Source of the DNA: an uncultured Myxococcales bacterium
GTDB taxonomy: Bacteria; Myxococcota; UBA4151
Direction of reading: 5' to 3'
Assembly: GCA_964013405.1 (NCBI GenBank)
Contig: CAXGWI010000092.1
Coordinates: 1 to 14,427, forward strand
Length of the DNA stretch: 14,427 bases
Below, piece after piece: positions 2 to 14,427 of this stretch (position 1 is its first letter; every line of letters starts with the position of its first letter). The position numbers were made by a program, and so were the translations under genes. The notes beneath the pieces were generated by a model. That model had not been told where the DNA came from. It ran no database searches and was given only the letters and a program-made list of their open reading frames with translations.

Positions 2-3000
2 ACGAACTTCGATGTGCGCCCCCAGGTTCACATCTTCTTCTCCGTGGCCGGCGGGACCGGTTCGGGCTCGCACCTGATGATGGCCTACCTTATCCGCCAG
101 GCCTTCGAGACCCAACTCTCGGGTCGAGTGCCTTTTATCACCGCAAACATCGTGCTGCCCCAGGTCTTTGGCCAGGTCGCCGGTGAGAATGCGCCGGGCA
201 TTTATGCCAATGGCTACGCGGCCCTCAAGGAGATCGAGCATCACATGAAGCTCGCCTCCAACTCGCCGCTGGTCCCCGAGCAGCTCGAGTTCCACTACAA
301 CCCAGGCCTGAAGCGGTCTTCCACCTATGTGAAGACCCCGCCCTTCGACCTGTGCTACTTGCTGGGTTCCCCCGGCGGCTTCCGCTTGGGCGGTAAAGTG
401 GGGGCGGTCTCCACAGTGGCGGCTGATGCCTGCTACTTGAATCTGTTCAGTCCTATCAGTGTGACGGTGGACAGCGATAAGGACAACTACGAGCAGCACT
501 GGAAGGCCCTGTATCCCATCGAGCTGGGCAAGCAGTACAGCCAGCCCGGCTACACGCCGCTTTGGGCCACCTATGGCGCCTCGGTCTACTTGGTGCCGGC
601 CAAGGAGATCGCCAACTACTGTGCGAAGAAGATGGCCTGCTCGGCCATCAACCGGACTCTGCTGATGAACGACCCCGATATGGTACCTCCGGGGCCTGCT
701 CGGGATGCGTTTAACGACAAGCCTAGCCCGGAGAAGCTCAAGAAGATGACCGAGGGTGAGCGCAAAGAAGCCCTCGATAACAGCTTTTGCTCTCGTTTGC
801 GGGCCGTCGCCGACGCAGAGCGGGCGTCCAACGTTGAAGGACAGAGCAAGTCGCCGTTGCGGGCTGCTGAGGAGTCCTATTCCAGCGCCGTCGGTGCCTG
901 GGATCGCCAGATGGAGGCCTGGAAGACTGAGATGGCCAACGTGGCGAAGAATGAGGGGACACTCACCAGCCCCTCAGGCGAGTCGCTGGGTGACAGTGGC
1001 GTGATGGGCTGGGCCAGTGGGCAGGGCAAGAAGAGAAAAGAGAAGGCAGCGAAGTTCGTCCAGGAGAAGGGTCAGAACATCATTACTCGTCTCGACAAGG
1101 CGATGGCCGATTTCTTCAATGAGCACGATATCGAGAGTCTCGGTCAGCGCTACTTCCTGCTGATGCTGTTGGCCGGCCGCGAAGTCGACAGCTACACCGG
1201 ACGCTGGGGTAAGGATAACTTGGTCTCCGGCGCCGAGGCCGTCAAAGGGGCCTTGGCGAACAACATCCTGGGCAAGGGGCAGGAGGACACGGCCAAGGGC
1301 TTCGACAGTCGAATGACCGTTAAAGAGGGCGGCTTCTTTGGTGGTGGTGATGATGAAGAAGCTGCGGCCGACGCGGCTGTGTCGGAAGCGGCCAAGTGGC
1401 TTGAAGGCCAGGTGGAACTCTATCGCAACGGGCTGGCCGAACAGCAACTCTACCTCATCGCTGATGCGGTCGCTGAAAAGGCCGCCAGCATGCTCGACAA
1501 CTTCCGGGATATCGAAGAGCGGGGAGCCAGTCGGGGTGATGAGATTAAAGCTGACTGCAAGGCCTTGCTCCGCCACGGCGGTGAGGAGGCGAACCTCTTC
1601 CAGAATGACATCGAATTGCTCTCCGATCCCAACGAGCGGCGACTCTGGGAGTGGTTCTTCGTCGAGAAATGCGAAATGGGCGATGCCAAGTTGCCCGATG
1701 CCACGGTGCAATCCCTGATCAGTCGGGCCATGACCGAGCCGATCGAAATGCCCGGGGGAAGTCGTCGGAATCCGGAGGCCTCTGAGGTCATCGATCGGGC
1801 CCTGGAGCTGCTTGAGACCGCAGCCTATGAACAGGTCAAAAAGTACACCGTGGGCTCCGGCACGCCTGGCGATCGCTACGAGCATGGTTTGACCATGGAG
1901 GAAGCGGCGATTCTGACCCAGGTCTACATGAACGTCGAGAAGGCGCAGGGGAACCTGTCCATGCGTGCAGCCCTGCAGAAGTTCGGCAAGAAGATGAAGG
2001 CCGACTGCGATCAGGACGAGACCACTCGGACGGCCCTACAAGGCATGATCGGTTCGCAGATTGCGCGGGTCTTTAACTCGGCAGCGGTCCTCGAGGCCTT
2101 CGACGACACCGCCATGACCGGCCAGGTGAAGGATCTGCGGATCTGCCTGCTGGCTTGTCACGAGGATTATCTCGAAGGCGGCGTCCTGAAAGACGCCCTC
2201 GACTCCCAGATGCGAGGGGTTTCACCCTTGGGCGGCTGGCATGACCGCAAGAAGATCATTGTGTACAACGCAGTGATCGGTGCGCCCGTCTATTGCTTCC
2301 CACGGGCTGTTGAGTTGCGAGAAGCCTATGACGAGATCAACGACATCGGCATCAAGGAACTCCACATCGACCAGAACTTCCGGGATTTGGATGATCTGGA
2401 TGTCAACGCTCGCCTCAGCAAATTGCGGGAGCAGGACGAGTACAAGGAGAAGCCCGAGTTCGCCCGGGATCTTGCGGTCTTCCTGACCGGCGTGCTTAAT
2501 CGCCAGGTTCGTCTCGACGAGACTGGGCTCTGGGAGGCGGTGAACGAGTACACCAGTCATGTGCCGGGCTCGGCGGGAACCTTTGCGTTCAACCGCAAGC
2601 TCGCCCCCAACCGCATCGGCGCGGTGAAGGCCTTTACGGACTTGTCCACTGATCCTGACGCCACCGTGCGCCGGGCCTGGTATGAGCCCGTACGCGAGCA
2701 TTTCAATAAGGCCTTCCAGCAGGGGGGTGACGGCATGGAAACAGATTTGGGTAAGAACCTGAGGTTGATCCACGAACAGTGGGGGAACCGGATTCTGGAG
2801 ATGAAGATGGCCCATGCCTCCACGAACGTGGAAGCAGTGGTCCAGAAGGATGGCCGCAAGGGCAACGTGCGGGATCACGTGAAGTCTCTTGGGATTCACG
2901 AGCTCCACGAACTCCAGATCTGTCACAGCGCGTTGGAGCGCTTCATTAAGGATCCCTTTAAGAAGACCGATGAGAAGCCATCGCTGCCGCCGGGGGTGAC

Positions 3001-3007
3001 GGTCTGA
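2..3007 (+). CDS. Tubulin/FtsZ-like GTPase (Tubulin_2 / FtsZl1-type) with long helical middle region; 5'-truncated
   Basis: The frame is open from position 2 (T-N-F-D-V-R-P-Q...), so the true start lies upstream and the GTG at 14 is internal. The tubulin signature IFFSVAGGTGSG is at 32-67. It is followed by motifs typical of this family: ANIVLPQVF, ANGYAALKEIEH, PPFDLCYLL, TYGASVYLVP, and a C-terminal IIVYNAVIGAPVY...Y...LHID block. The stop TGA is at 3005-3007. Confidence 0.9.
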   Translation, partial: TNFDVRPQVHIFFSVAGGTGSGSHLMMAYLIRQAFETQLSGRVPFITANIVLPQVFGQVAGENAPGIYANGYAALKEIEHHMKLASNSPLVPEQLEFHYNPGLKRSSTYVKTPPFDLCYLLGSPGGFRLGGKVGAVSTVAADACYLNLFSPISVTVDSDKDNYEQHWKALYPIELGKQYSQPGYTPLWATYGASVYLVPAKEIANYCAKKMACSAINRTLLMNDPDMVPPGPARDAFNDKPSPEKLKKMTEGERKEALDNSFCSRLRAVADAERASNVEGQSKSPLRAAEESYSSAVGAWDRQMEAWKTEMANVAKNEGTLTSPSGESLGDSGVMGWASGQGKKRKEKAAKFVQEKGQNIITRLDKAMADFFNEHDIESLGQRYFLLMLLAGREVDSYTGRWGKDNLVSGAEAVKGALANNILGKGQEDTAKGFDSRMTVKEGGFFGGGDDEEAAADAAVSEAAKWLEGQVELYRNGLAEQQLYLIADAVAEKAASMLDNFRDIEERGASRGDEIKADCKALLRHGGEEANLFQNDIELLSDPNERRLWEWFFVEKCEMGDAKLPDATVQSLISRAMTEPIEMPGGSRRNPEASEVIDRALELLETAAYEQVKKYTVGSGTPGDRYEHGLTMEEAAILTQVYMNVEKAQGNLSMRAALQKFGKKMKADCDQDETTRTALQGMIGSQIARVFNSAAVLEAFDDTAMTGQVKDLRICLLACHEDYLEGGVLKDALDSQMRGVSPLGGWHDRKKIIVYNAVIGAPVYCFPRAVELREAYDEINDIGIKELHIDQNFRDLDDLDVNARLSKLREQDEYKEKPEFARDLAVFLTGVLNRQVRLDETGLWEAVNEYTSHVPGSAGTFAFNRKLAPNRIGAVKAFTDLSTDPDATVRRAWYEPVREHFNKAFQQGGDGMETDLGKNLRLIHEQWGNRILEMKMAHASTNVEAVVQKDGRKGNVRDHVKSLGIHELHELQICHSALERFIKDPFKKTDEKPSLPPGVTV

Positions 3008-3029
3008 GTCGGATCGACAGAGACACTTG

Positions 3030-5921
3030 ATGGACCTGCAACCCAGGGCCGGGGTTCGTCCTGACAACCCGACCCTCATCCTCTCCTTAGGAGCGGTGGG
3101 GGAAGGGGTGTCGGCCAAGCTCCGCGCTCAGCATGAGGAGTTGGCAAGACTGGGCGCCCTCGATGGGCGTGGCGGTGTTGCTTTTGCCGAGCTCGATGGC
3201 GATTTGCGTCAGGCGATCAAGGCAGCCCAAGAGCTGATGGCCTATGGGCAACTGCTGGGGCAACGGGAGGTCTTGGAGCGCCAACGACCTCGTCTTGATG
3301 TGGTGGTCGTCGCCTCCTTGACCGAGGCAACGGTCCGGCAGCACCTGCAGCATCGGCTGGGTAAGTTACACAGCTTGTTGCTCCATCATATGGGCGCGAT
3401 CTTTGATCGCTTTCGCTACGGTCATGACCGCAACCTGACGGTGATCCCGGTGCTGGCCAGTGGTTATGTGCCTAGAGACCCCGAGGGACCGGCCGTGGAG
3501 GCAGCCCTTAAATCCTTGCTCGACTGGGTGGAGGCGATTCCCAAGGCCGACTTCGCAGATTCCGAGCCCGGTACCGAGACCGCCTTCGACTATGTCGGCG
3601 GCAGCGTCGAGTTGGAACTCGACCTCGCGCGGGGCAAGGAAGATCTGATCGCAGAGATTATGGATGGGGAAGGCCAAAAGGTCCGGCAACTCAAGCTCGG
3701 GCTGCACGTTCCCGGTAAGGTTCAGGTTCGCTGGGATGGGTTGTACCGCTCCGGCAAGAAGGCGGAGACAGGTCGCTATACCTTGCGCTTTCGGCCGCGG
3801 CTACAGTCCTCGGATTACGACGGCTACATCGATCAGGTCTTCGTCCTCGATGATGTCACAGACACCAGCGTCCTCAGTCCGGCGGAAGTCGAAGATAACA
3901 TCCGGAACTTCCTCGAGCTCATGCTCTATTCGGGGCTGCGGAACGCTCGGGACGCCGATGAGTATGAGCTGCTTCCGGCCGGGCGGGACTGGTTTCACCG
4001 AGTGGAGCCCGGTGAGCGCAACAGCCGGCTCTCCACTTTTAGTTGTGCCGCTCTTGAAATCCCCGTGTTCCGTTTGCATCGCTACTGTGCTCAAAAAGCA
4101 GTTCTAGAAGGACTGCGCATCCTCAAGGCTCGCCCCGAGGGTTACGATGAGGATCCGGTCCAAGTGGCCGGGCGGCGGGAGGACATGAGTGAGGCCCAGG
4201 CGGGCATCCGAGCCCTCTCTGTGGATCCGATTACCCGTAAGTTGGCCCAGGACCTGGGGGCCAAACTACAGTTGGAAACGTCCGCTGCCGACGAGGAAGA
4301 CGAGGACGAGGAGACCGACGAAGTTCCGTTGTTGGCTAGCAATGAGTCTTTGCTCATCGCCCTCGGCCCCAGCCGGCTCGAGTCGGATCAGCAACGCATC
4401 AAGGGGCTATGGCGACATTATCAGCGCTGGGGGATGGACCAACGGGTTCGGTCTGCAGCGGTGAAAGCCTACGAATTGGCCGATGAGATCGGTCGCCTGC
4501 TGCGCCAAAGCATTGACCTGATCCTCGATCAGAAAAAACCCGGTGTCCATTGGCGTGCGATCGAAGAGGTCGAATCCCAGATTCGAGAGGTCCAAAGCGG
4601 TTACGAAGATGCCCTCACCCGGCGTGATGAGGTGGAGCTTTCGCCCCTCCCTAGCCCCACACCCCTCAAGGATGCGAACGACGAGATCGTCGCGGCCATT
4701 CAGGAGCGACCGGAGCCGGAGCGCATGAAGTTCTGGGGCTCGATCATGGCCCTGTTGGTGGGGTCCAGGATCGGCGAGTTCTGCTTTCTTAAGTGGGGAG
4801 TCGACCCCTTGGTTGCCTTGGGCGATGAAGCGAACTGGCTCGATCTTTTGCGACACGTCGCCCTGCCCTATCTCGGAGGGATCCTCTTGGGCACAGCCGG
4901 CGTGGTTCTCGCGCTGTGGTTCTGGCTGGATCGGGCCACGGACCGGGTCCGAGATGCTTATGAGTCTTACTTGGACGTGTTTCGGGAGAGGGTGGTCGGT
5001 CGCAATAACGATTCCATCTACCGCTATTATGCCACCCGCCTGGATCTTCTGTTTCGCCAAGAGGTGGTGCGGGCGAACCTTCGCTCCGTTGAAGCCGTCC
5101 ACGCCGAGCATCGGGCCCTCAAGGGCATCGACGAGAGCCTTCGCATTCAAATCCAGAACATCGAAACAGCCCAGGAAGCCCTGGGCGTGGTCATCAATCG
5201 GGATGGAAGTGAGCAACTGGGCGACCTGTTGGGGATTGACGACAAGAGCGCCATGCGGACCCCGGGTCTCGCCGAAGACGATATCGAGGTGATTTATCGG
5301 AGCCGGGCCCTGGGCGTGGATTGCCCAGAAGAAGTGCCCCATCAACATTATGAAGTGGCGATCCAAATCTATCGGGAGGCTGCTTTAGGTCGGGGCTTGG
5401 CCCATCTGTACCAAGACTTCCGAGATCGAGTGCCTGCCTCGGATCTGGATGAGCTGCTCGTCTTTGGTGATGGCCGGGCCAGCGGCGTGCTCGATGGCTC
5501 TCTGATCCCCGATTATGCCCGCCGCCATGTGGTCGACTTTCTCAATGATCACACGCCGAATTTGAGCACCGGCCTGGATTGGGATGGCAACGTGATGAAT
5601 CCCCTCGGGCCCGACAGGTTGACGGCTGCAGAGGGAGAGCGGGACCGCCAGTACCTCATGCGCCTCGAAAATCAGCCCATGATCACCGCAGGCCCCACGG
5701 ACTTGGCCCGTTGGTTGAGCCGCTGGGAGGAGACCGATCCTTTGATGAAGAGCGGCCGGTTTCTCACGGTGGACCCCACCGCCGACCACCATGGCCATCG
5801 GGCCGATCGGGAGAATCGTCTCTATCTCGCCCGCGTGGTGCAAGGCCTACCCCTGCAAGCCGCTCGCAGTTTGCAAAGCCTAGAGACCTGGTTTGATGGC
5901 GAAGGGGGGGCTGAAGCGTGA
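3030..5921 (+). CDS. Degenerate (probably inactive) tubulin-like paralog with inserted FlgD Ig-like domain and a two-helix membrane anchor
   Basis: A ~963-aa ORF (ATG 3030; TTG 3027 is an alternative). PTLILSLGAVG matches the first glycine-rich loop position, and LDVVVVASLTEAT sits where VxxxxSxAGGTGSG is expected. EAALKSL, IDQVFVLDD, STFSCAALEIP......YCAQK and the C-terminal LYLARVVQGLPL all parallel gene 1. Two hydrophobic segments at ~4731-4928 are flanked by helical regions. Confidence 0.8.
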   Translation: MDLQPRAGVRPDNPTLILSLGAVGEGVSAKLRAQHEELARLGALDGRGGVAFAELDGDLRQAIKAAQELMAYGQLLGQREVLERQRPRLDVVVVASLTEATVRQHLQHRLGKLHSLLLHHMGAIFDRFRYGHDRNLTVIPVLASGYVPRDPEGPAVEAALKSLLDWVEAIPKADFADSEPGTETAFDYVGGSVELELDLARGKEDLIAEIMDGEGQKVRQLKLGLHVPGKVQVRWDGLYRSGKKAETGRYTLRFRPRLQSSDYDGYIDQVFVLDDVTDTSVLSPAEVEDNIRNFLELMLYSGLRNARDADEYELLPAGRDWFHRVEPGERNSRLSTFSCAALEIPVFRLHRYCAQKAVLEGLRILKARPEGYDEDPVQVAGRREDMSEAQAGIRALSVDPITRKLAQDLGAKLQLETSAADEEDEDEETDEVPLLASNESLLIALGPSRLESDQQRIKGLWRHYQRWGMDQRVRSAAVKAYELADEIGRLLRQSIDLILDQKKPGVHWRAIEEVESQIREVQSGYEDALTRRDEVELSPLPSPTPLKDANDEIVAAIQERPEPERMKFWGSIMALLVGSRIGEFCFLKWGVDPLVALGDEANWLDLLRHVALPYLGGILLGTAGVVLALWFWLDRATDRVRDAYESYLDVFRERVVGRNNDSIYRYYATRLDLLFRQEVVRANLRSVEAVHAEHRALKGIDESLRIQIQNIETAQEALGVVINRDGSEQLGDLLGIDDKSAMRTPGLAEDDIEVIYRSRALGVDCPEEVPHQHYEVAIQIYREAALGRGLAHLYQDFRDRVPASDLDELLVFGDGRASGVLDGSLIPDYARRHVVDFLNDHTPNLSTGLDWDGNVMNPLGPDRLTAAEGERDRQYLMRLENQPMITAGPTDLARWLSRWEETDPLMKSGRFLTVDPTADHHGHRADRENRLYLARVVQGLPLQAARSLQSLETWFDGEGGAEA
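3585..3797 (+). other. FlgD-type Ig-like domain inserted within gene 2
   Basis: VELELDLARGKEDLIAEIMDGEGQKVRQLKLGLHVPGKVQVRWDGLYRSGKKAETGRYTLRF fits the FlgD_ig pattern I-x-D-x-x-G-x-x-V-R-x-L...G-x-x-x-x-x-W-D-G-x-x-x-x-G-x-x-x-x-x-G-x-Y. WDG is at 3732-3740. Confidence 0.85.
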
Positions 5922-8900
5922 GCATGATCGGCACCTTCATCGCATTGGCTGTGCTCATCACCATTTTGGTGATCGGCTATTTCGTGGGGCCGCTCCTGAG
6001 CATCCTCCATCTCTTCATCGCCGGGATTTGGTACGTCCGAGTCAAGAAGCACAACAAAGAGAAACGACGTGAGCGGCCATCGACCGGTCCGGTGTATTTC
6101 CTGACCGGTGCCACCGTGCTGGCCATCTACGTCGTTGTCTATGCCCTCGACAAAACCCTGGCAGCCACCACCATCGATGGCCCCAAAGGGGGCGTGAGTT
6201 ACTTCTTCTGGGCGATTTGGGAGCCCTTTGGTGTCGGTGGGTGGGTCGATGGCGCCCTTTACGATCGCGCCAGCATGCTCATCCACACGGTGCTCATCCT
6301 GCCGATGTTGTGGTTGGGGGTGACCTTTTTTCGCCGCTATCTGCTTAAGAAGAATCCAGCCGAGAAGAGCTGGATGTGGCGGGGCATTGAGTTCGTTGCC
6401 GGCCTCTTAAGGCTTCAGGCCTTCCTGAAGGGCGGCCAAGAGAAGACAGCTCGGGAAGAGGAGGAAGAGAAAGCCGCTGGGGGGCCAAAGGAAGAGAAAT
6501 GGCCCCCCGAGGGCGAGAAGCCCAGTTGGGAGATCAAGCAGGAGTGGCCCTACCATCAGATCGGTTATGACACTGGCGGTGCGCCGGACCGAACTTGGCT
6601 TTGGCCTCACGAAACATCCCCGGTGTTTCGCAAGTGGATGTGGACTCTTGTCTTCGGTTGCCTGGTGGTTGTCACCGCCTCCAACTGCGTGGGCAAGGGC
6701 AACGGTGTCGGCAGCGCCTTCGGCCCCCTCAAGGGGCTCATCGCTGGTGAGGCGCAAAAGAAGCTAGGAGAGACCCTCGATGCGGTCGGTGAGGAGCTCT
6801 CAGGCGGTGATGATGCGGTCGAGGGGCACTGGTGGCAGACCTTCGTGGGTTCAGGCCAAGAGCTCGACGATCCCGTGGTCCTCGTGGGCCGGGATATTCG
6901 TGCTTCTGATCCCCGTTTCGTGGCGGCCATGCGCCTGGCGCAACACAAAGAGCGGGGCCTCGCCGTCTACACCCTCGCTGAGCCAGATCGGAAGATCGAG
7001 CGCCTGCTAGAGCGAGCCAGCAAAGGTGATGTTCAGCATGCCTACGTCCGCCTGTTAGAAGGTGAGAAAAAGCCCTTTAAGGCCGGCAAAAAACGGGATG
7101 AGTTCCTGCGGAGCCTGAAGGCCTTCACCCAGGCCGATGCCTACACCGAAGCCGATGTGAAAGCGCTGGGCTTTAGCGACATCGCTGACAGCCCCTTCGC
7201 CCAAATGCGCGGCACCAAGGACACCCAGTTGGAGGACGAGTGGGGTCTCGGCATGCTCTCCAAAGTGAAACCTGGTGCGAAGGGAGAGGGGGCTGACTGG
7301 GAACCACCGGCGCTTAGCCCCGGTATCATCAAGGCTCGAGTCGCCCGGGCCGGTGAGCCCGTGAAGAACTTCCTGAAGGATATGGGAGACGCCCTGGCCA
7401 ACGCCGGTGGTGGCATCCACTACGGTACCAGCAAGGGGCTTTGGTTGGCCTCGTTCTGGTTCTGCATCCTGTTGCTGATGGCCCTGGACACCACGACGGT
7501 GCCACCGCCGGAGGAGAAACCATCCGTGGAGGCAGAAGAGCCTCCCGTGCACTTCGGCCTGGTGGAGTTGCTGACGGCCATCACCCGGGCCAATGCGGAC
7601 GGTGATATCGCCGATCCACCAGAGATAGATGGTCGAGCGGAAAAGGATCCGCCCAGGCCCCACGGGAAGTTGGTGGGCGTGGGCAAGAACCGCTGTGTTT
7701 GGCCCGGCGGTCTCGATGATGAGCGCGAGATCGGTGACAAGGCCGAAGCCAGTGCGGCTGCGGGCGAAGAAGCCGACCGAACGACGGCCCAGCTTTCCCG
7801 TTTGGTGAAGGAGTTTGTCCAGCAGCTGGAGCCCAGTGGAGACGGCAGTACCGAGGCCCAAGGTAAACTCATGGAGAGCCAGCGCCGGGCCTTAGAGAAC
7901 TATGCCGCGGCCCGCCAGCGGACCAGTGGGCTGATCGGCTCCATTCAGAGTACAGGCGATAATCTGATCGAGGAGCGGGGAGCCCGTCTTGTGACGGCGA
8001 GTCGCTCGTTGAATCCCCTCTTGATCGGCCCCGAAGGCTCCGGCCGGACGACCACCCTGGCCCTCTTCGCCGCGGATACCGTCCTTCAGTACTGCCGGCG
8101 GGTGTTGTGGATCTGCACCGACGAGCGGCACCGGGAGCAAGTGGTCAATGGGGGCGGCGGCCAACGGGGCTTAGAAGATTGGTTTATGCGGTCCAACCTT
8201 CGCTGGGGGATCAAACGGGGCGTGGGGCTCTCGGGTCCCGGCAGCGTGGACTCGAATCGGGTGGAAGGTATTCGAACCGACATCGCATTCCTGACCCTCG
8301 AGGAGCTCGGCAACATCCATTTGGAGTTGCCTGGCCGCTACGATGAGCTCTTCACCGAGGTGGGGATGGTCGTCTTGGATGACCTTGACCGACTCTCGGG
8401 ACTTGAGGAGCAAAAAGCCTACTGGGTTCTTCGCCGTTTGAACTCCCGGCTAGAGCAGGATGCCGACTCGCCCGTCTCCCTCTTTTGGGCGGCGAGTTGC
8501 TCCCAGGTCGCTGAAGGCGCGGTGACTTGGGCTGAGGATTTGGTCGGTCAGAACTTCGACAGCGTTGATTTTGAGAAACTCAAAGGTGCGCCCCAGGTGA
8601 AGCGCTATCGCTTCTACCTCAATGAGTTCATCGATAAGCGGCGTAACCCCCTAACGGTGCATGACCTGGTTCGCTGGCTCGAAGCCCTGAAGATCCCTTG
8701 GCATCTGCGGCGCTGTGAAGCTCATCTGCGGGATTTGGACTTGGTCTCGGCCGTCTCCGGCTTGGCCAATACCTATCATGTGGCCGACCCGCGGCAGGCT
8801 GCGGTGGTCATTCTGCAGGGTAACTTTGCCGAGGCCAACCGGGAGGCAACCCGCCTCGCACACGCAGGCAGCTTGTCGGCCCGGGAGTGCATGGGCTTCT

Positions 8901-11900
8901 TCATGGATGTGGCTGCTCAGGAGGTCTCCAGTTTCCAGATGATGGACGAAGGAGACCCCCTGCGGGCCTTGATCCAAGAGCTCCCGCGGGCCGTTGCCAG
9001 CCATGGCAATGAAGTCCTGCATCGTCGACAGATCGACGCGGTGCATGTGGAGAACTGGCAGGTCCAAGATCGGATTCAGGACCTCTTCGAGAAGGAGGCG
9101 GTAGAAAGCCGTCAGTCCGATTACGAAGATCATCTCCAGACCGAGGACTTCGTCGACTTTACCGAAAACCACCAGGCTTTCCGTCATCGTCAACGGGTGC
9201 ATCTCGCCCTCGGCCGGTGGCCGGTTGTGCCCTTCATGGCTGGCACGGCAACGGCAGAGTCTGTGGCCGTTCTCGATCGCTCTGCGGGCGAGGTGCTCAC
9301 CGAGGTTGATGCTGCAGTCGCCGACATCCATTATTATCCAGGCCGGGTTTTTCTCCATCCCAACGGGCGATATAAGGTCCGGGAGCGGGAGCAATTGAAA
9401 GGGGATGCCAAGCAACTCCCCCGGCTGCTGGTGGAGCGGATCGAGGACGATCAACTCTCAAGCCCGCGAAAAACCCATAAGCTCATAGACCTAGGAGATG
9501 AATGGGATTGGCGGGAGGATCGAATCAGCATCGGGCGCTTCCCGATCGCGGTCCAAGAAGGGCCTGTGGCGGTCGAGACCACCGTCGAGGGTGTGAATCT
9601 ACTCGAGGCCACCAACCTCAAGTTGATGGAGCGCCGCCAATTCAAGGAGAGTTCGCCCAAGTGTGACTACGAGACCCGTGCGGTCTACATCCGCTTTGAA
9701 GAGCATATGGAGCCCAAGGGTGGGGCGCCACCGGTCCAGCTGCTGGCGGCGACGGGGCGGAGCCTCTTGCCCCTGCTGATGCGGGGCTGTGAAGAGTATG
9801 TGGACGTCCACCTGCTGGGCTCTGAGGCGGTGCCCGAGGGCCTCGCGCTTTGGGAGACCGTCCCCGGTGGGATGGGCTACATGGGGCGTTTCTATGATGA
9901 ACTCGTCCTTGATTGGCTGCGGCTCATTCGTATGCGCCTCGAGCGCTCTGTGGACGTGCATCGTCTGGTGGCGGTCCATGACCACACGGGGAAGCTGGGC
10001 GGTGTTCAGGCCGATCGAGAGAAGGCCTTTGAGACCCACGGTGACAGCCCACTGGGCCGGGCCCTGGCCTGGCTGGATGCGGTCCTCGAAGGCGAGTCCG
10101 ATCCCGGTCAATTCATGGGGCAGGTCACCCACGGCGGTCTTCCCGGTGAAGGGCAGAGCGGTGATATTGGGCGAGTCTGGCAATCCGACAGCGGGCGGAC
10201 GGATCAGCTGGTCTGGACTGAGCACCGTTGGGAGTTGAGCGCCCGCTTGGCCCATCTGCTCCAATACCGAGAGGTCATTCTCCACACAGCCCACGAGCGG
10301 CAAACCCTCCAGAGCGCGCTGCTGTTTAGCGACAATATCGAGGACTTGGTCGCTCGAGCACAGGATTTAGGTTTCCTCATGCGACTCGAGGGGGGCGGGA
10401 AGCCTTCCATCGAAACCAACAGCGAGCGCTACTCTGAGGAGTTCTTACCTTGGGCGATCAACGCCAACGTGGCTATCGACTTGGCCATGGAGCGGTTGAG
10501 GCCTTTGGGTCACCTCTTCGCTCGAGTGGCCCAGCAGTTAACCGAGGCGGTGGACAATAACCCGGGCCTCGGGCGCTACCTCACCGCGGAGTTCATTCTG
10601 GGCTTCGTCCAGGCCATGGATCACGATGAAAGCCTCAAGCACCTGCGGGATATCAAGGTCCAAAAGACCGAGAAGGAGCCCACCGCCGAGGAGAAGCCAC
10701 CGGCCGGGGGTGTGGTGCTCGAGTTCTCCGATCTCAAATACGATGAGGCCACCAAGCAACTGCAGCACGCCTCCACGGGCAAAAAGATCGTCGTACACTT
10801 ACGGGATCGGGACAAAGGAGAGCAGGAGCCACGCCTCCATACCCATTACTGCGCGACCATCTCCAAGTTCAACAACGAGGGGAAGTTCGACCGGGCCTAT
10901 ATCGCGGCCAAACCCGGCGCAGACAGCTACCGAGTCATCAGCACCGACACCGGCGAAGCCAGCGAGCTCACCTTGCCCCACTGTGGTCATTGCGAGCGCA
11001 TGACGGCGGCCGTTGAGAAGGCCACCATGATTCCCCAAAAGACGGTGGAGATGGATTACCAAGAGGCCCAAATCGTCTCGCCCTTGAGGGCCTTGGCGAT
11101 GCGCAGTGGCAACACGGAGTCCAAGATGCTGCTGGCCGTGGCGCTCCTGCGGCTCTTGGGGATCGATGCGATGATGATGAAGAACAGCCTCACCGGCCGC
11201 CGTCGCCTTTTGGTGGCCTGCGACCCCAGCGCCGATCAAGGCGCGGGCTACGACGGCTATCTCCTCAAAGAGGGTTTCGAGGATGAGCATTGCATCGTCC
11301 CGGTCGAAGGCAGCAAGTACTTCCTCGCCGACGTGGCCGAGCCCCTTCAGCCTGGACGGGTAGGGGAGCCGGTCACGCTGGCCGAAACCGAGATGCTCGA
11401 CATTGCGAGCGGTAACCTCATCCAGTTCTTCGTGACGAAGGGCTGGAAGCCGTTGACCGGCAGCTCCGAGGCACCGGAAGCCTTCTCCGGCGTCCAGCGG
11501 CAAACGGGTCGCGCCCAGGATCTCCATGGTGCCGTCGCTGCACCCTTACCCGCGATCCTCCTCGCTGAGCAGGCCGCGTTTGTCCATGAACTGACGGGGC
11601 TGAGCCCGCGAGATGCGGAGCGCTTGGTCATCGAGGCGCAGCCTTGGCGCCTCGATTCGGCGAACACGTTGATCGAGATGAGTGATGGGAGTGCGAGCCT
11701 ACCTGTGGAGGAGAAGGGGCGCCCCTGGGTGCAGCCGCTCCTCGATGGTTTGCGTCGAGCCCATTGTCGTATCAAGAGCGCCGATTTAGATCCTGAGCGG
11801 GCCGAGGCCATCGCCCACGTGGCATCGGTCTATGGTTTGGAGGCGAGCCTCATCGAGGCATGGCTCGATGGCAACCACGCGGGTCGCCCCTTGGATCAGG

Positions 11901-12052
11901 CCGGTGGGCGGGAAGCCTGGCGCCGTCATGGTGATTATCGGATCGAGGCCGGTGACACCCATTACCTCCTTCGGGGCACGGCTTCGCTCAGTGCCGGTCG
12001 CTTTATGCAAGCGATCCAGCGCCGCTACGGAAAGGAACAGGCCCATGGCTAA
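5918..12052 (+). CDS. Giant multidomain membrane protein: multi-TM N-terminus + degenerate MrfA/YprA (DUF1998)-like SF2 helicase module + degenerate transglutaminase-like domain
   Basis: A 2044-aa ORF. Its GTG overlaps the gene 2 stop (GTGA 5918-5921) and is preceded by GAAGGGGGGG. About 5-6 hydrophobic helices lie in the first ~525 aa. Helicase-like motifs occur in order from 7868 to ~10090, and transglutaminase-like motifs from ~10590 to 11370. The stop TAA is at 12050-12052. Confidence 0.88.
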   Translation: MSMIGTFIALAVLITILVIGYFVGPLLSILHLFIAGIWYVRVKKHNKEKRRERPSTGPVYFLTGATVLAIYVVVYALDKTLAATTIDGPKGGVSYFFWAIWEPFGVGGWVDGALYDRASMLIHTVLILPMLWLGVTFFRRYLLKKNPAEKSWMWRGIEFVAGLLRLQAFLKGGQEKTAREEEEEKAAGGPKEEKWPPEGEKPSWEIKQEWPYHQIGYDTGGAPDRTWLWPHETSPVFRKWMWTLVFGCLVVVTASNCVGKGNGVGSAFGPLKGLIAGEAQKKLGETLDAVGEELSGGDDAVEGHWWQTFVGSGQELDDPVVLVGRDIRASDPRFVAAMRLAQHKERGLAVYTLAEPDRKIERLLERASKGDVQHAYVRLLEGEKKPFKAGKKRDEFLRSLKAFTQADAYTEADVKALGFSDIADSPFAQMRGTKDTQLEDEWGLGMLSKVKPGAKGEGADWEPPALSPGIIKARVARAGEPVKNFLKDMGDALANAGGGIHYGTSKGLWLASFWFCILLLMALDTTTVPPPEEKPSVEAEEPPVHFGLVELLTAITRANADGDIADPPEIDGRAEKDPPRPHGKLVGVGKNRCVWPGGLDDEREIGDKAEASAAAGEEADRTTAQLSRLVKEFVQQLEPSGDGSTEAQGKLMESQRRALENYAAARQRTSGLIGSIQSTGDNLIEERGARLVTASRSLNPLLIGPEGSGRTTTLALFAADTVLQYCRRVLWICTDERHREQVVNGGGGQRGLEDWFMRSNLRWGIKRGVGLSGPGSVDSNRVEGIRTDIAFLTLEELGNIHLELPGRYDELFTEVGMVVLDDLDRLSGLEEQKAYWVLRRLNSRLEQDADSPVSLFWAASCSQVAEGAVTWAEDLVGQNFDSVDFEKLKGAPQVKRYRFYLNEFIDKRRNPLTVHDLVRWLEALKIPWHLRRCEAHLRDLDLVSAVSGLANTYHVADPRQAAVVILQGNFAEANREATRLAHAGSLSARECMGFFMDVAAQEVSSFQMMDEGDPLRALIQELPRAVASHGNEVLHRRQIDAVHVENWQVQDRIQDLFEKEAVESRQSDYEDHLQTEDFVDFTENHQAFRHRQRVHLALGRWPVVPFMAGTATAESVAVLDRSAGEVLTEVDAAVADIHYYPGRVFLHPNGRYKVREREQLKGDAKQLPRLLVERIEDDQLSSPRKTHKLIDLGDEWDWREDRISIGRFPIAVQEGPVAVETTVEGVNLLEATNLKLMERRQFKESSPKCDYETRAVYIRFEEHMEPKGGAPPVQLLAATGRSLLPLLMRGCEEYVDVHLLGSEAVPEGLALWETVPGGMGYMGRFYDELVLDWLRLIRMRLERSVDVHRLVAVHDHTGKLGGVQADREKAFETHGDSPLGRALAWLDAVLEGESDPGQFMGQVTHGGLPGEGQSGDIGRVWQSDSGRTDQLVWTEHRWELSARLAHLLQYREVILHTAHERQTLQSALLFSDNIEDLVARAQDLGFLMRLEGGGKPSIETNSERYSEEFLPWAINANVAIDLAMERLRPLGHLFARVAQQLTEAVDNNPGLGRYLTAEFILGFVQAMDHDESLKHLRDIKVQKTEKEPTAEEKPPAGGVVLEFSDLKYDEATKQLQHASTGKKIVVHLRDRDKGEQEPRLHTHYCATISKFNNEGKFDRAYIAAKPGADSYRVISTDTGEASELTLPHCGHCERMTAAVEKATMIPQKTVEMDYQEAQIVSPLRALAMRSGNTESKMLLAVALLRLLGIDAMMMKNSLTGRRRLLVACDPSADQGAGYDGYLLKEGFEDEHCIVPVEGSKYFLADVAEPLQPGRVGEPVTLAETEMLDIASGNLIQFFVTKGWKPLTGSSEAPEAFSGVQRQTGRAQDLHGAVAAPLPAILLAEQAAFVHELTGLSPRDAERLVIEAQPWRLDSANTLIEMSDGSASLPVEEKGRPWVQPLLDGLRRAHCRIKSADLDPERAEAIAHVASVYGLEASLIEAWLDGNHAGRPLDQAGGREAWRRHGDYRIEAGDTHYLLRGTASLSAGRFMQAIQRRYGKEQAHG
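7868..10090 (+). other. Degenerate SF2 helicase module (MrfA/YprA/Hrq1-like) within gene 3
   Basis: The motifs are Q-motif-like LMESQRRA (7868), Walker A-like GPEGSGRTT (8027-8053), Ia-like RVLWIC, Ib-like TDIAFLT and Walker B-like MVVLDDLD (DDLD 8378-8389) followed by VLRRL. Further family-like blocks are VAVLDRSAGEVLTEVD....IHYYPGRVFLH..GRYKV (~9260-9380), GPVAVETTVEG, YETRAVYI and LWETVPGGMGY (~9848-9880). Confidence 0.75.
10592..11370 (+). other. Degenerate transglutaminase-like (papain-fold) domain within gene 3, split by an insert
   Basis: FILGFVQAM ... SPLRALAMRSGNTESKMLLAVALLRLLGIDAMMM ... EGSKYFLADV...PG resembles the pattern FVQ.I.Y...P.E.L....GDCDxKxxLxxxLL..LG....L...H....G..Y...E....G. 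The catalytic Cys position reads Thr (GNT, 11108-11116). Confidence 0.7.
12032..12036 (+). promoter_or_regulatory. Ribosome binding site for gene 4
   Basis: AAGGA lies 8 nt upstream of ATG 12045. Confidence 0.65.
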
Positions 12053-12479
12053 GCAGCGGGAAGAAGACGCTGTCTTTGTCGGCTTTGAAAGCAATCTCCC
12101 TGAGCGGGTGCATCGGGAGCGCAAGGATGAGAGTCTGGGGCCGCCTCCGGTGGATCCCGACCTGATCGCTGCGGCCCTTGAAGAAGCGGAAGCCGCCGAG
12201 GCGAAGAGCCAGGAGGCACCACCAGCGGAAGCAGTGGACGACGAGGAGTTCGACGACGAGGAGTCCGAAGGAAAACCCTGGTTAAAATGGGTGATTATTG
12301 CCGTGGTCGTGGCTGCCATCGGTTACTTCGCTTACCGTCAGATGCAGGACACACCCGAGCCAGCGCCGGCCCAAGAAAGCAGTCAGCCGGCGCAGCCGAA
12401 CGAAGCTGAGGAAGGGGACGGGCCAGAGCCAAGCCCGGCCGATACGCCTCCAGCAAATGATCAAGAGGAGGCGCCGTGA
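12045..12479 (+). CDS. Small acidic, Pro/Glu-rich single-pass membrane protein (144 aa), function unknown
   Basis: ATG 12045 has an AAGGA RBS and overlaps the gene 3 stop by 8 nt; the ORF-track start at 11832 is over-extended. One TM segment, WLKWVIIAVVVAAIGYFAY, is flanked by low-complexity acidic regions. Confidence 0.85.
   Translation: MAKQREEDAVFVGFESNLPERVHRERKDESLGPPPVDPDLIAAALEEAEAAEAKSQEAPPAEAVDDEEFDDEESEGKPWLKWVIIAVVVAAIGYFAYRQMQDTPEPAPAQESSQPAQPNEAEEGDGPEPSPADTPPANDQEEAP
12465..12471 (+). promoter_or_regulatory. Ribosome binding site for gene 5
   Basis: GAGGAGG lies just upstream of GTG 12476, which overlaps the gene 4 TGA. Confidence 0.7.
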
Positions 12480-13150
12480 GCACCGAGACCGAAACACCGC
12501 AGCCTGCGGGCGACGAAGTGGAGGCTGCCGAGGCCCGTGAAGCGCCGGCTGCCGAGGCAGGGCCCGCGGCCGTTCAAGCCCCTGAAGATCCGCCGGCGGC
12601 GGTGCCGGCCACGGAGGAGGAGATGGAGCCTCAGCGCAGTCCAGCCATGGACTGGGCCGTGGCCTTCACGGCCCAACAGCCCTTGGGTCATGGGCGGATT
12701 GAAGGGGTGATTCTCAGCGGCTCGGCGATCTACACGATCTTGCGGCAGGCCTTCGGTGATCGACTGAAGGATCACGGCCTGATTCACTACGGTTCAAAAC
12801 ATTATCTCGTGCCGACCAAGACCCAGTGGGAGCACCTGCTGGACGAGACTCTTGATTTGGACAGTCGCTTGCAGGGGACTCCGTGGTTGCGGGCTGATTT
12901 GGCCTGGCCTTTACGCTTCGACCTCCTACGTCGGGCCGCGGGCTCTGAAGCGACGGACTCAGAGGTGGGCCTGGTGCCCCTGGCCTGCGGCGTGCTCGTG
13001 GATCTTCCGGTGGCTGCCGGGCGTTCTTGCCTGAATGTTTTGATCAGTCATGATGAGGGCAAAAACCAGGTATGGATTGTGGATCCAGCCAATGGTCGGC
13101 GCCGGCCCGTCGATGGCTCGGATCGAGATTTGACGGTCGTCTACATTTAG
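12476..13150 (+). CDS. Hypothetical protein: acidic disordered N-tail + degenerate papain/transglutaminase-like domain (MOA Agglutinin_C-like)
   Basis: A 224-aa ORF with GTGA coupling and a strong RBS. HYLVPTKTQWEHLL ... WLRADLAWPLR ... LACGVLV ... SCLNVLISHD ... VWIVDPANG parallels Y..P.......I / FDCDDFA..LK / A.G...G / HAxN..I / V...EPQ of MOA-type domains. Confidence 0.8.
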   Translation: MSTETETPQPAGDEVEAAEAREAPAAEAGPAAVQAPEDPPAAVPATEEEMEPQRSPAMDWAVAFTAQQPLGHGRIEGVILSGSAIYTILRQAFGDRLKDHGLIHYGSKHYLVPTKTQWEHLLDETLDLDSRLQGTPWLRADLAWPLRFDLLRRAAGSEATDSEVGLVPLACGVLVDLPVAAGRSCLNVLISHDEGKNQVWIVDPANGRRRPVDGSDRDLTVVYI

Positions 13151-13162
13151 ATAGGCGGCGCG

Positions 13163-14427
13163 GTGCTCCTTTCCGCTTTCGTGTTCAGTTTGGGAATGAG
13201 CCTTCCGGTTCTGGCCGGGGCTGCGCCTGGGCCTGCCGAGGCTTGTCTTGAGGTGTTTCCGGGGGGGGTGGCGCGGCCGGAGGAGCCGATGCGCCGCGCC
13301 CAGACTTGGACCCTTTGGGCCCAGCAAGCGGACCACCCGGTGGGATTCTACCGCCAAGCCGCCAAGCTCTATGAATGCGCCATCGAGAAGTCGAAAGCGC
13401 TTCAGAAAGAGGACAGCGAAAATGTAGGGAAGTACGCAGCCCTTCAACGGCAAGCTGAAACAGCGCTCCAACAAGCTCAGGTACGGGTTGAGAACAACTG
13501 GGATACCTTTCGGAGTCAGTACCCGGCGGTGTGGTGGTTCTTAGATGAGAACCCGACCATCGAGCGTTACGAGGACGCCGACATGGCCGCCGTGGGGCAG
13601 GCCTGGCACGGACTGGTCGCTGGCCTGGAGCCCTTGAAGATCCCTCGCCTGACCGTTCTGCCCCGCTGTCTTGAGATGGCTGGGATGAAGACAGGCCATG
13701 ACAAAGCTGCGAGCTGTGCCCATTTACGAGGCGAGCTACTCCAAGTCCTATCGCAAAGCCCCCGCTTTCAAGGCGTCGATGATGCCCGGGCTGTGGAGCT
13801 GCTGGGTGCGGACTATGACGACCTTGTGACGGAGCCAAAGGCTGCAGGCAGCGAAGAGGAGCGAGGGCTCGTTAGGCGCTTGGCCGCTGGTCTTGGGGTC
13901 GGCGAGGTGATGCTCCTTGATCTACGGCTCAGCGACCGATTCCACCTGCCGGCGGAACAGGATTGGGCCGATGTGGCCCGTATCGACTTGAATTACCGGA
14001 TCTGGAGTGAGCGGGAACAGGCCTGGACCGCCGACGGACGTCGAGGCGCAGTGGTGGCCAACGTGGGCAAGGGTTGGGGGATTGGTTTCGTCGCGATCAT
14101 CTTGCTCTTTATCATCTCCGTTCTGTTCGCCACCGTGGCCAGTTGGTTACGCAGGAACCTGGATCGGTTAAAGGCCGGGCGGGGGCTGCAACTGGATAAG
14201 GCGGAGTCACTGGACGAGGACTGGGTTAAGGCTTTGATCCTTTACTTGGGGGTCCCGCTTCTCGGCTTTACGGTGGGCGGTGGGCTCGGGGTTCTCGCCG
14301 GCATGGTGAGCGAGCAGTTTGTCCCCAGCTGGGGCACGCCGGCGCTTACGCCCCTACGGGTAGTGTATATACCCCGCGTTCACGTACTCTGGTGGCCCTT
14401 CATCCATGGTTTCGTGGTGATGGTCTT
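13163..14427 (+). CDS. Exported-domain multi-pass membrane protein, probable TolB-N/CsgG-like domain; 3'-truncated
   Basis: Translated by hand: the frame is open from GTG 13163 to the window end (421 codons, no stop). It begins with signal-peptide-like MLLSAFVFSLGMSLPVLAGAA, then a helical region, then LTVLPRC...LRGELLQVLSQSPRFQGVDD...RLAAGLGVGEVMLLDL...RIDLNYRIWS. TM segments follow at ~14075-14146 and ~14231-14306, with a third starting near 14385. The exact start codon is uncertain. Confidence 0.85.
   Translation, partial: MLLSAFVFSLGMSLPVLAGAAPGPAEACLEVFPGGVARPEEPMRRAQTWTLWAQQADHPVGFYRQAAKLYECAIEKSKALQKEDSENVGKYAALQRQAETALQQAQVRVENNWDTFRSQYPAVWWFLDENPTIERYEDADMAAVGQAWHGLVAGLEPLKIPRLTVLPRCLEMAGMKTGHDKAASCAHLRGELLQVLSQSPRFQGVDDARAVELLGADYDDLVTEPKAAGSEEERGLVRRLAAGLGVGEVMLLDLRLSDRFHLPAEQDWADVARIDLNYRIWSEREQAWTADGRRGAVVANVGKGWGIGFVAIILLFIISVLFATVASWLRRNLDRLKAGRGLQLDKAESLDEDWVKALILYLGVPLLGFTVGGGLGVLAGMVSEQFVPSWGTPALTPLRVVYIPRVHVLWWPFIHGFVVMV

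Follow-up and report, generated by a model that had tools for sequence, protein, structure and literature searches.

A conserved four-gene operon in myxobacteria joins a tubulin-like GTPase to membrane-anchored, catalytically eroded partners

The stretch of DNA analysed here (14,427 nt, hereafter the window) is the entire contig CAXGWI010000092.1 (C92) of the 3.9-Mb genome of an uncultured Myxococcales bacterium (assembly GCA_964013405.1, termed G000), and carries most of an operon in which the gene for a tubulin-like GTPase is followed by genes for membrane-anchored pseudo-enzymes. Six open reading frames (ORFs), all on the + strand, lie at 2-3007, 3027/3030-5921, 5918-12052, 12045-12479, 12476-13150 and 13163-14425, and are referred to as genes 1-6. 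An earlier interpretation made from the letters alone (the sequence-only reading) had described these as six co-oriented genes with five tight junctions; upon rechecking coordinates and overlaps we found all five as claimed, with GTGA overlaps at positions 5918 and 12476, one of 8 nt at 12045, and gaps of 22 nt (to the ATG at 3030) and 12 nt. Both gene 1, at its 5' side, and gene 6, at its 3' side, are cut by the contig ends. The GC content of the window is 0.611, compared with 0.607 genome-wide, and no promoter or terminator signals above those of shuffled sequences were detected. The features of genes 1-3 are as follows (TM, transmembrane; AF2, AlphaFold2; HMM, hidden Markov model; Ig, immunoglobulin):

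2..3007, + strand: gene 1, Tubulin_2/FtsZl1 GTPase, 5'-truncated, core (PF13809, contig overlap, intact copy in a same-genus genome)
47..67, + strand: T4 signature loop AGGTGSG of gene 1 (sequence)
3027..5921, + strand: gene 2, membrane-anchored pseudo-tubulin, core (AF2 model, VIA-align, hhalign, hydropathy)
3573..3800, + strand: FlgD-like Ig domain within the pseudo-tubulin domain of gene 2 (PF13860, E 3e-9; Z 9.3 to FlgD)
5918..7501, + strand: N-terminal membrane region of gene 3, six TM-like segments (hydropathy, alignment occupancy)
7985..10117, + strand: pseudo-helicase of gene 3, MrfA/YprA (DUF1998) fold, core (AF2, Foldseek, profile, motif counts)
10523..11230, + strand: transglutaminase-like domain of gene 3, interrupted by an insert of ~140 aa (family HMM test)

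The sequence missing from gene 1 was found on a second contig of the same genome, C102, whose reverse complement shares the 20 end bases at the start of the window. This contig supplies the first ~160 aa of gene 1 and the missing Tubulin_2 profile positions 1-143, and just upstream it holds a gene for a 957-aa von Willebrand factor A (vWA) protein. In a same-genus genome used for comparison (G001), the vWA gene, a full-length tubulin gene (1158 aa) and genes 2-6 follow one another in this order on a single contig, which confirms the join between C102 and C92. The vWA protein has a signal-like N-terminus, a DDSGS motif and a C-terminal TM segment, and is predicted to be an outward-facing receptor. 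It has no Pfam match itself, and its homologues match VWA_2 weakly (E 1e-5 to 1e-3, below the cut-off); within the family the C-terminal TM segment is present in 62/62 proteins and DxSxS in 50/63.

Gene 1 encodes a Tubulin_2 protein (PF13809, E 2e-30; profile positions 162-355 within the window) with an intact AGGTGSG loop, as the sequence-only reading had it. The motif GG[TS]G[ST]G is kept in 74/75 homologues, as is a D-N pair following an H7-like helix, which by its position may correspond to the T7 catalytic loop, in a region that Makarova and Koonin (2010; PMC2875224) were unable to assign. Beyond residue 400, 62/66 family members have no TM-like segment. The protein shows the features by which FtsZl1 is defined, namely an FtsZ-like domain at the N-terminus with a GGGTG(S/T)G-type loop, a long coiled coil and a helical C-terminal part.

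The product of gene 2 had been proposed to be a pseudo-tubulin, a view upheld by structural alignment, profile comparison and motif counts. When an AF2 model of the protein (predicted local distance difference test score, pLDDT, 73; predicted template-modelling score, pTM, 0.61) was compared with 48,161 chains using VIA-align, the top 16 rows all belonged to the tubulin/FtsZ family; the best match was CetZ (Z 15.2, 266 residues aligned over model range 13-964), and BtubA (Z 14.6) and AtubA/B2 were also among the top fold matches. Furthermore, the gene 2 family profile matches that of the gene 1 family in hhalign with 86% probability (E 4.7e-6). The T4 motif GG[TS]G[ST]G is found in 0/57 gene 2 sequences, and the loop matching the D-N pair of gene 1 is variable, with no conserved acidic pair. 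A tubulin-like N-terminal part is followed by a ~370-aa helical hairpin (about 347-718) and then by a C-terminal alpha/beta part; within the hairpin are two TM-like segments, at about 570-588 and 616-634. Among 54 homologues two such segments occur in 34, one in 17, none in 2 and three in 1. From the range and aligned length of the CetZ match, the model suggests that both tubulin halves are present with the hairpin between them. Tubulin_2 proteins are reported to be without the FtsZ_C and Tubulin_C Pfam domains (PMC9871819); for gene 2, the model would point to a tubulin C-terminal domain that has been displaced by a long insert rather than lost. The FlgD-like Ig domain of gene 2 is lineage-specific, being missing from the other 56 aligned rows.

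Gene 3 had been described as a membrane-bound pseudo-helicase with a pseudo-transglutaminase domain, and here too the fold and the motif losses agree with the proposal. A search of 1.84 billion representatives returned 107 hits, from which an alignment of 86 stored sequences of ≥950 aa was made, the window protein included. Homologues belonging to the same-genus cluster bear the label Myxococcota/Myxococcales. Most aligned sequences have N-terminal TM-like segments (3-6 in 38/39 homologues by hydropathy); the window protein has six, with a lineage-specific insert of ~245 aa between the fifth and sixth. The claim of TM segments in genes 2, 3, 4 and 6 as a whole is borne out at this level, all of them being TM-like by hydropathy only. 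An AF2 model of residues 690-1461 (pLDDT 79, pTM 0.83) has as its best Foldseek match the Bacillus subtilis helicase MrfA (6ZNP, E 1.3e-26, template-modelling score 0.54), which is also the best match of the sequence profile to Protein Data Bank (PDB) sequences (E 6e-8), and the RecA1-RecA2-WH-OB-CON-MZB fold is recognizable across about 770 aligned columns. In the window protein the Walker A motif reads GSGRT (K to R), Walker B has DD without the glutamate (DDLD), and the motif VI position reads REATRLAHAG. Across the 82 rows that contain the domain, Walker A has lysine in 54 and arginine in 26, and the catalytic glutamate is kept in 4. Compared with four canonical MrfA-type helicases of myxobacterial genomes, the subtype to which the window protein belongs is without motifs Ia, Ib, III, IVa and V; its Cys4 zinc site is present in 0/29 sequences, and the gene 3 helicase domain is acidic, with a mean net charge of -3 versus -0.25 per 100 aa in the canonical set. 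In MrfA an arginine anchors the DNA 'rope' (PMC7797055), for which the gene 3 alignment has no conserved equivalent. A second subtype has no recognizable Walker motifs yet keeps Cys4 in 16/17; thus, the fold is retained whilst different active parts erode. As judged from these motifs the helicase fold is dead for ATP hydrolysis, and it is probably also DNA-blind.

The transglutaminase-like domain of gene 3 was recognized using a profile of 32 motif-selected family domains from which the window protein and its same-genus orthologue were excluded; it scored 21.8 + 4.9 bits, compared with 9.4 for the best of 200 shuffles. GNTESK replaces GDCDSK, such that the catalytic cysteine is Thr1733, and the catalytic histidine is likewise replaced; the cysteine is kept in 11/63 rows with the domain. 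Pfam Transglut_core was detected in three homologues (P0033, P0085 and P0021), and pairwise BLAST of the window domain to P0021 was not significant. In some homologues (P0033, P0067, P0075, P0085) there are two domains of this kind, and GDC(D/E) is intact in the last of them. The ~140-aa insert that splits the domain (window about 10631-11050) contains HYC and CGHC, a possible metal site, and is 83% identical in G001. ZorE2/HNH matches (gene 3 residues 1571-1701, best E 4e-6) are weak and fall on this insert, and a nuclease was rejected.

To place these genes in context, a Tubulin_2 alignment search was made of a partly scanned genome collection, which gave at least 502 confirmed matches. The loci analysed are the best 80 of these 502 and, as best-scoring matches, are biased toward the clade of the window; they come mainly from Myxococcota, Bradymonadia and Thermoanaerobaculia. 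Linkage was counted only in loci with enough flanking sequence, using profiles partly built from the counted loci and hence circular for those members. Gene 2 is the next gene after the tubulin, at ≤300 nt, in 57/65 informative loci, gene 3 lies downstream of the tubulin in 40/48, and a vWA gene lies upstream in 51/63; all three partners are present in 32/42, always on one strand. Used alone as queries against the 80 loci, the window proteins recovered gene 2 in 38 of them, gene 3 in 31 and a vWA gene in 27, and a gene 3 profile made from separate database hits matched in 44/80. In a phylum sample of 301 genomes, not chosen by closeness, Tubulin_2 was over the cut-off in 13; of the nine loci fetched from these, seven have the order tubulin-gene 2-gene 3, one stops inside the tubulin and one is of a distant type. 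Four distant Tubulin_2 loci gave no gene 2 or gene 3 match, and a fifth gave a weak gene 2 match only. The conserved unit is thus one of four genes, the upstream vWA gene and genes 1-3, found in many myxobacteria and some acidobacteria. Enhygromyxa salina is a cultured carrier, and homologues of single components occur in Sandaracinus amylolyticus and Bradymonas sediminis. The sequence-only reading had instead treated the six window genes as the unit and expected genes 3-6 to be linked to Tubulin_2: for gene 3 (and gene 2) this linkage holds across phyla, whilst genes 4-6 have no homologues in the related loci.

Several searches gave blanks that bear on this distribution. Tubulin_2 was found in 0/4 genomes of the sister genus (59-93% complete), and a genome scan with protein P0019 as query returned nothing. 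Single-protein searches with gene 3, run against 61 and 401 genomes, picked up G000 and G001 and no others; these blanks do not represent absence, as in some genomes of that phylum sample the distant subtype was later detected with the profile. A quick tubulin tree was left unfinished and places the same-genus sequence on a very long branch, and we therefore claim no origin or transfer for the tubulin gene.

Conservation of the three core window genes exceeds what chance would leave. In the comparison of G000 with G001, synonymous sites have come close to saturation (pS 0.66-0.89), whilst the domains of genes 1-3 retain 70-98% amino acid identity, and dN/dS is 0.01-0.12 where computable. Genes 2 and 3 are therefore maintained pseudo-enzymes and not decaying ones. 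As both are linked to Tubulin_2 and are dead family-wide, the earlier idea of an active tubulin-like GTPase with dead membrane partners stands. One marine metatranscriptome sample has contigs that span the greater part of gene 1 along with fragments of genes 2-5; these were not counted as expression, because DNA carry-over is possible and there was no silent-stretch control.

The operon is an uncharacterized four-gene variant of the FtsZl1-vWA operons that were defined by Makarova and Koonin (2010; PMC2875224), who predicted a membrane-remodelling machine, and it is recognizable as such because of the vWA gene that lies outside the window. As in those operons, a large FtsZ-like GTPase with a coiled-coil extension is encoded between a membrane vWA gene, which immediately precedes it, and the gene for a large membrane protein, with kinases nearby in some loci; the supplement to that study lists the order vWA-FtsZl1-'hypothetical protein' for Plesiocystis pacifica. 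In contrast to them, no associated P-loop GTPase is present here, and the gene after the tubulin is identified as a membrane-anchored pseudo-tubulin, followed by a multi-TM DUF1998 pseudo-helicase; the terms 'helicase' and 'transglutaminase' have 0 occurrences in the neighbour table of PMC2875224. A P-loop GTPase or OmpA gene is a frequent, not universal, feature of FtsZl1-vWA operons. DO-GTPase2 was found in 0/2 genomes of the window's own genus and was over the cut-off, unlinked, in 3/20 operon-bearing genomes, and an OmpA/Sel1 gene lies upstream in G001 only. The GAP1-N2/DO-GTPase systems (Kaur et al., 2020, section 29; PMC7159879) likewise include, in their Firmicutes version, two coiled-coil tubulin-domain genes and a membrane vWA gene, a combination that is also found at our locus, and inactive enzyme domains are a theme there. 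They differ in their hosts, and a pseudo-helicase is not mentioned in the relevant passages of that paper; moreover, GAP1-N2 (PF20013) was found in 0/2 own-genus genomes and in 1/20 operon-bearing genomes, about 2.5 Mb from the operon.

With MrfA/YprA helicases gene 3 shares the superfamily 2 core and the WH-OB-CON-MZB fold. It differs from these, and from the helicases of DISARM, Dpd, Druantia and ARMADA, in being membrane-anchored and in having lost the catalytic glutamate, the majority of the motifs that contact DNA and, within this subtype, the zinc site; nor is there a nuclease or methylase partner at the operon, as there is in those defence systems. PADLOC 2023 is without ARMADA models, so that ARMADA was compared by paper text only, and the main text of the YprA survey (PMC12458937) has 0 mentions of tubulin, vWA or transmembrane. 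Genes 1 and 2 resemble alpha/beta-tubulin, BtubA/B and Asgard AtubA/B2 in being two tubulin-fold paralogues side by side; unlike in those pairs, gene 2 has no GTP-binding loop and is membrane-inserted via a long hairpin inside its fold, and the two products are a heterodimer candidate only. The earlier expectation that the locus would not map fully onto a described system therefore agrees with these comparisons, the locus differing from the FtsZl1-vWA, GAP1-N2 and YprA systems alike. A literature search covering few subscription journals found no description of the four-gene unit or of the identities of genes 2 and 3, and in the literature found no experimental test of the FtsZl1 membrane-machine prediction is reported. 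Four genes with defined folds and clear active and dead roles narrow the question of what such a machine might be.

The order of the genes, the GTPase motifs in gene 1, the folds of genes 2 and 3 with their lost motifs, the TM-like segments and the purifying selection lead us to propose, with a probability of roughly 0.45, that the vWA protein and the products of genes 1-3 build a tubulin-like filament on the inner membrane whose assembly a receptor triggers. The single-pass vWA protein would bind a ligand outside the inner membrane via its metal ion-dependent adhesion site (MIDAS), and the signal would travel via TM contacts to the gene 3 product, whose dead helicase fold may serve as a cytoplasmic scaffold or conformational relay. 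The gene 2 product, with no normal GTP binding and no catalytic residues to supply, would be a membrane anchor that also nucleates or caps protomers of gene 1. Through its turnover of GTP, the gene 1 product would then assemble and disassemble a membrane-bound polymer that organizes or bends the membrane locally. A more specific version is possible but doubtful: that genes 1 and 2 form an alpha/beta-like tubulin pair whose dead member is integral to the inner membrane and has a ~370-residue TM hairpin inside its fold, nucleating or capping GTP-driven filaments on the command of an integrin-like vWA receptor via the DUF1998 scaffold, and so linking adhesion to the cytoskeleton from the outside in. 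If true, well-studied folds would here have been put to two new uses, that of tubulin as a dead, membrane-inserted partner of an active one and that of a DNA-repair helicase as a scaffold at the membrane. A complex prediction for the N-terminal domains of genes 1 and 2 with GTP, with the C-terminal tubulin parts left out, scored 0.00, a result that speaks neither for nor against the pair.

A number of observations weigh against this reading. In the CetZ match of the gene 2 model the root-mean-square deviation (rmsd) is 4.6 Å, and no tubulin is among the listed Foldseek matches for that model. The C-terminal parts of genes 1 and 2 have no significant match to one another (1.5%, E 0.033), nor do their helical middles, so that the model of a split tubulin fold applies to gene 2 alone. 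As the Walker A lysine is kept in 54/82 rows, nucleotide binding by the gene 3 family may persist. Four Bradymonadia-type loci have the tubulin with no vWA gene or gene 3 within 10 kb, and in three loci gene 3 is displaced further off. Lastly, the patchy distribution of the operon (13/301 phylum genomes; 0/4 in the sister genus) also fits a conflict system.

Such an anti-invader system, in which the DUF1998 fold of gene 3 would sense or decoy incoming DNA or invader proteins at the membrane with the tubulin pair as effector, is in our estimate rather unlikely. In its favour, DISARM, Dpd, Druantia and ARMADA have DUF1998 helicases at their centre (PMC12458937, PMC9142583), Kaur et al. (2020; PMC7159879) regard the neighbourhoods of tubulin and vWA genes as conflict systems in which inactive domains act as decoys, and NACHT/AAA and leucine-rich repeat (LRR) genes lie ≤10 kb upstream on C102. 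Set beside the patchy distribution these agree with the idea, but the DNA-contact motifs, an equivalent of the rope-anchoring arginine and the zinc site are not conserved, the gene 3 domain is acidic, and no nuclease is linked. Nor did PADLOC, suggested earlier as a check for known classification, give a convincing match for any core product (weak partial matches only, best E 4e-6). Among 127 sampled neighbours (of 208 eligible) from 29 loci there were 13 PADLOC matches at 1e-8, seven of which were generic Ser/Thr kinases and the others scattered single domains, such that the defence role put forward by the sequence-only reading is not supported by the neighbourhoods. A related notion, that gene 2 is a latent membrane-disrupting effector (a helical hairpin with a hydrophobic tip) restrained by gene 1 and freed on a signal, as in abortive defence, seems to us the most improbable of all. 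It draws on the gene 2 model's best Foldseek matches by E-value, which are hairpin-type pore formers (E 3e-4); these pore-forming-toxin matches are, however, generic long-helix matches (template-modelling score 0.10, rmsd >30 Å) and were rejected, and the whole-fold match of gene 2 is to tubulin.

Unlikely as well, and more so than a conflict role, is a contact-dependent apparatus for predation, adhesion or export, in which the vWA protein would bind prey or neighbour cells and the tubulin pair would power an envelope structure. The receptor is predicted to face outward, and hosts include Nannocystaceae, Sandaracinaceae and Bradymonadia, which are predatory lineages; the operon is nevertheless also present in Thermoanaerobaculia, most phylum genomes searched are without it, and the loci share no conserved gene for an outer-membrane protein, a pilin or secretion. 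That all six window genes form one system is very unlikely. The overlaps at junctions 3-4 and 4-5, the order kept in G001 and the purifying selection acting on genes 4 and 5 (G000 versus G001) would speak for a larger unit, but among the genes called in the 80 related loci and 20 extended flanks none matched genes 4-6 at E ≤1e-2, and gene 6 has an unlinked paralogue. Genes 4-6 stand beside the core only in one same-genus genome (G001) and, as judged from this comparison of sequences, are local neighbours and not core:

12045..12479, + strand: gene 4, acidic protein of 144 aa with a single TM segment, confined to the genus, not core (profile searches, hydropathy, locus comparison)
12476..13150, + strand: gene 5, 224-aa soluble protein with no fold assigned, not core (database searches)
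13163..14425, + strand: gene 6, cut at its 3' side so that the window has its front part, paralogue of a membrane AAA_16 ATPase, not core (27% identity to G000:C115, E 9e-40)

Of the two pseudo-papain folds proposed earlier, the transglutaminase-like domain without cysteine in gene 3 is upheld by the HMM test, whilst that of gene 5 found no match in Pfam, NCBIfam, PADLOC, PDB sequences or the ESM Atlas, nor in hhalign to the gene 3 transglutaminase profile. Gene 5 has 8 database matches including itself (62-100% identity), and its Atlas model has a pLDDT of 0.35. The Pfam accession PF20198 is DUF6561 and not a papain-like lectin domain.

The remaining observations concern the wider set of loci. 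Those of the second gene 3 subtype (L063, L068, L069, L073, L075, L077, L079, L080, L083, L089, L113 and L114) carry a single vWA gene or a pair of them, their gene 3 is shorter, and Ser/Thr kinase, PP2C and FHA genes often adjoin them. In Thermoanaerobaculia (L035, L047, L051, L055, L071) a conserved lipoprotein-like gene of ~330 aa, without a Pfam match, follows gene 3. The Bradymonadia-type loci (L054, L057, L058, L084) comprise the tubulin, a ~630-aa gene (with a weak gene 2 match in L058), an upstream Ig-domain lipoprotein-like gene and moeA. Split ORFs, attributable to assembly error or decay, were seen for the tubulin gene in L030 (9989-13245) and for gene 2 in L041 (13564-18139); an apparent fusion of genes 2 and 3 in L028 is an artefact, the ORF crossing an N gap. 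Upstream of the vWA gene of the window genome, the AAA, NACHT and LRR genes stand in tandem on the opposite strand (L001, G000:C102 5910-13290) as a cluster resembling NLR genes, without a counterpart at the same place in G001 as far as that contig extends.

Gene 6 encodes a signal-like segment, a soluble domain and TM helices, and is 27% identical to the front of the unlinked 1940-aa membrane protein on contig C115 of the same genome. The remainder of gene 6 was not found on another contig. The paralogue has an AAA_16 domain (E 1e-9) and is kept in G001 (G001:C33). Gene 6 and both copies of the paralogue (L127:1597-7419 and L126:5928-11612) represent a family of large membrane proteins with a soluble N-terminal domain, several TM helices, an AAA_16 ATPase and a long helical tail, and around them (L126 = G001:C33, L127 = G000:C115) lie several genes for cysteine-rich repeat proteins of ~890 aa with CGDG...CDDGN units.

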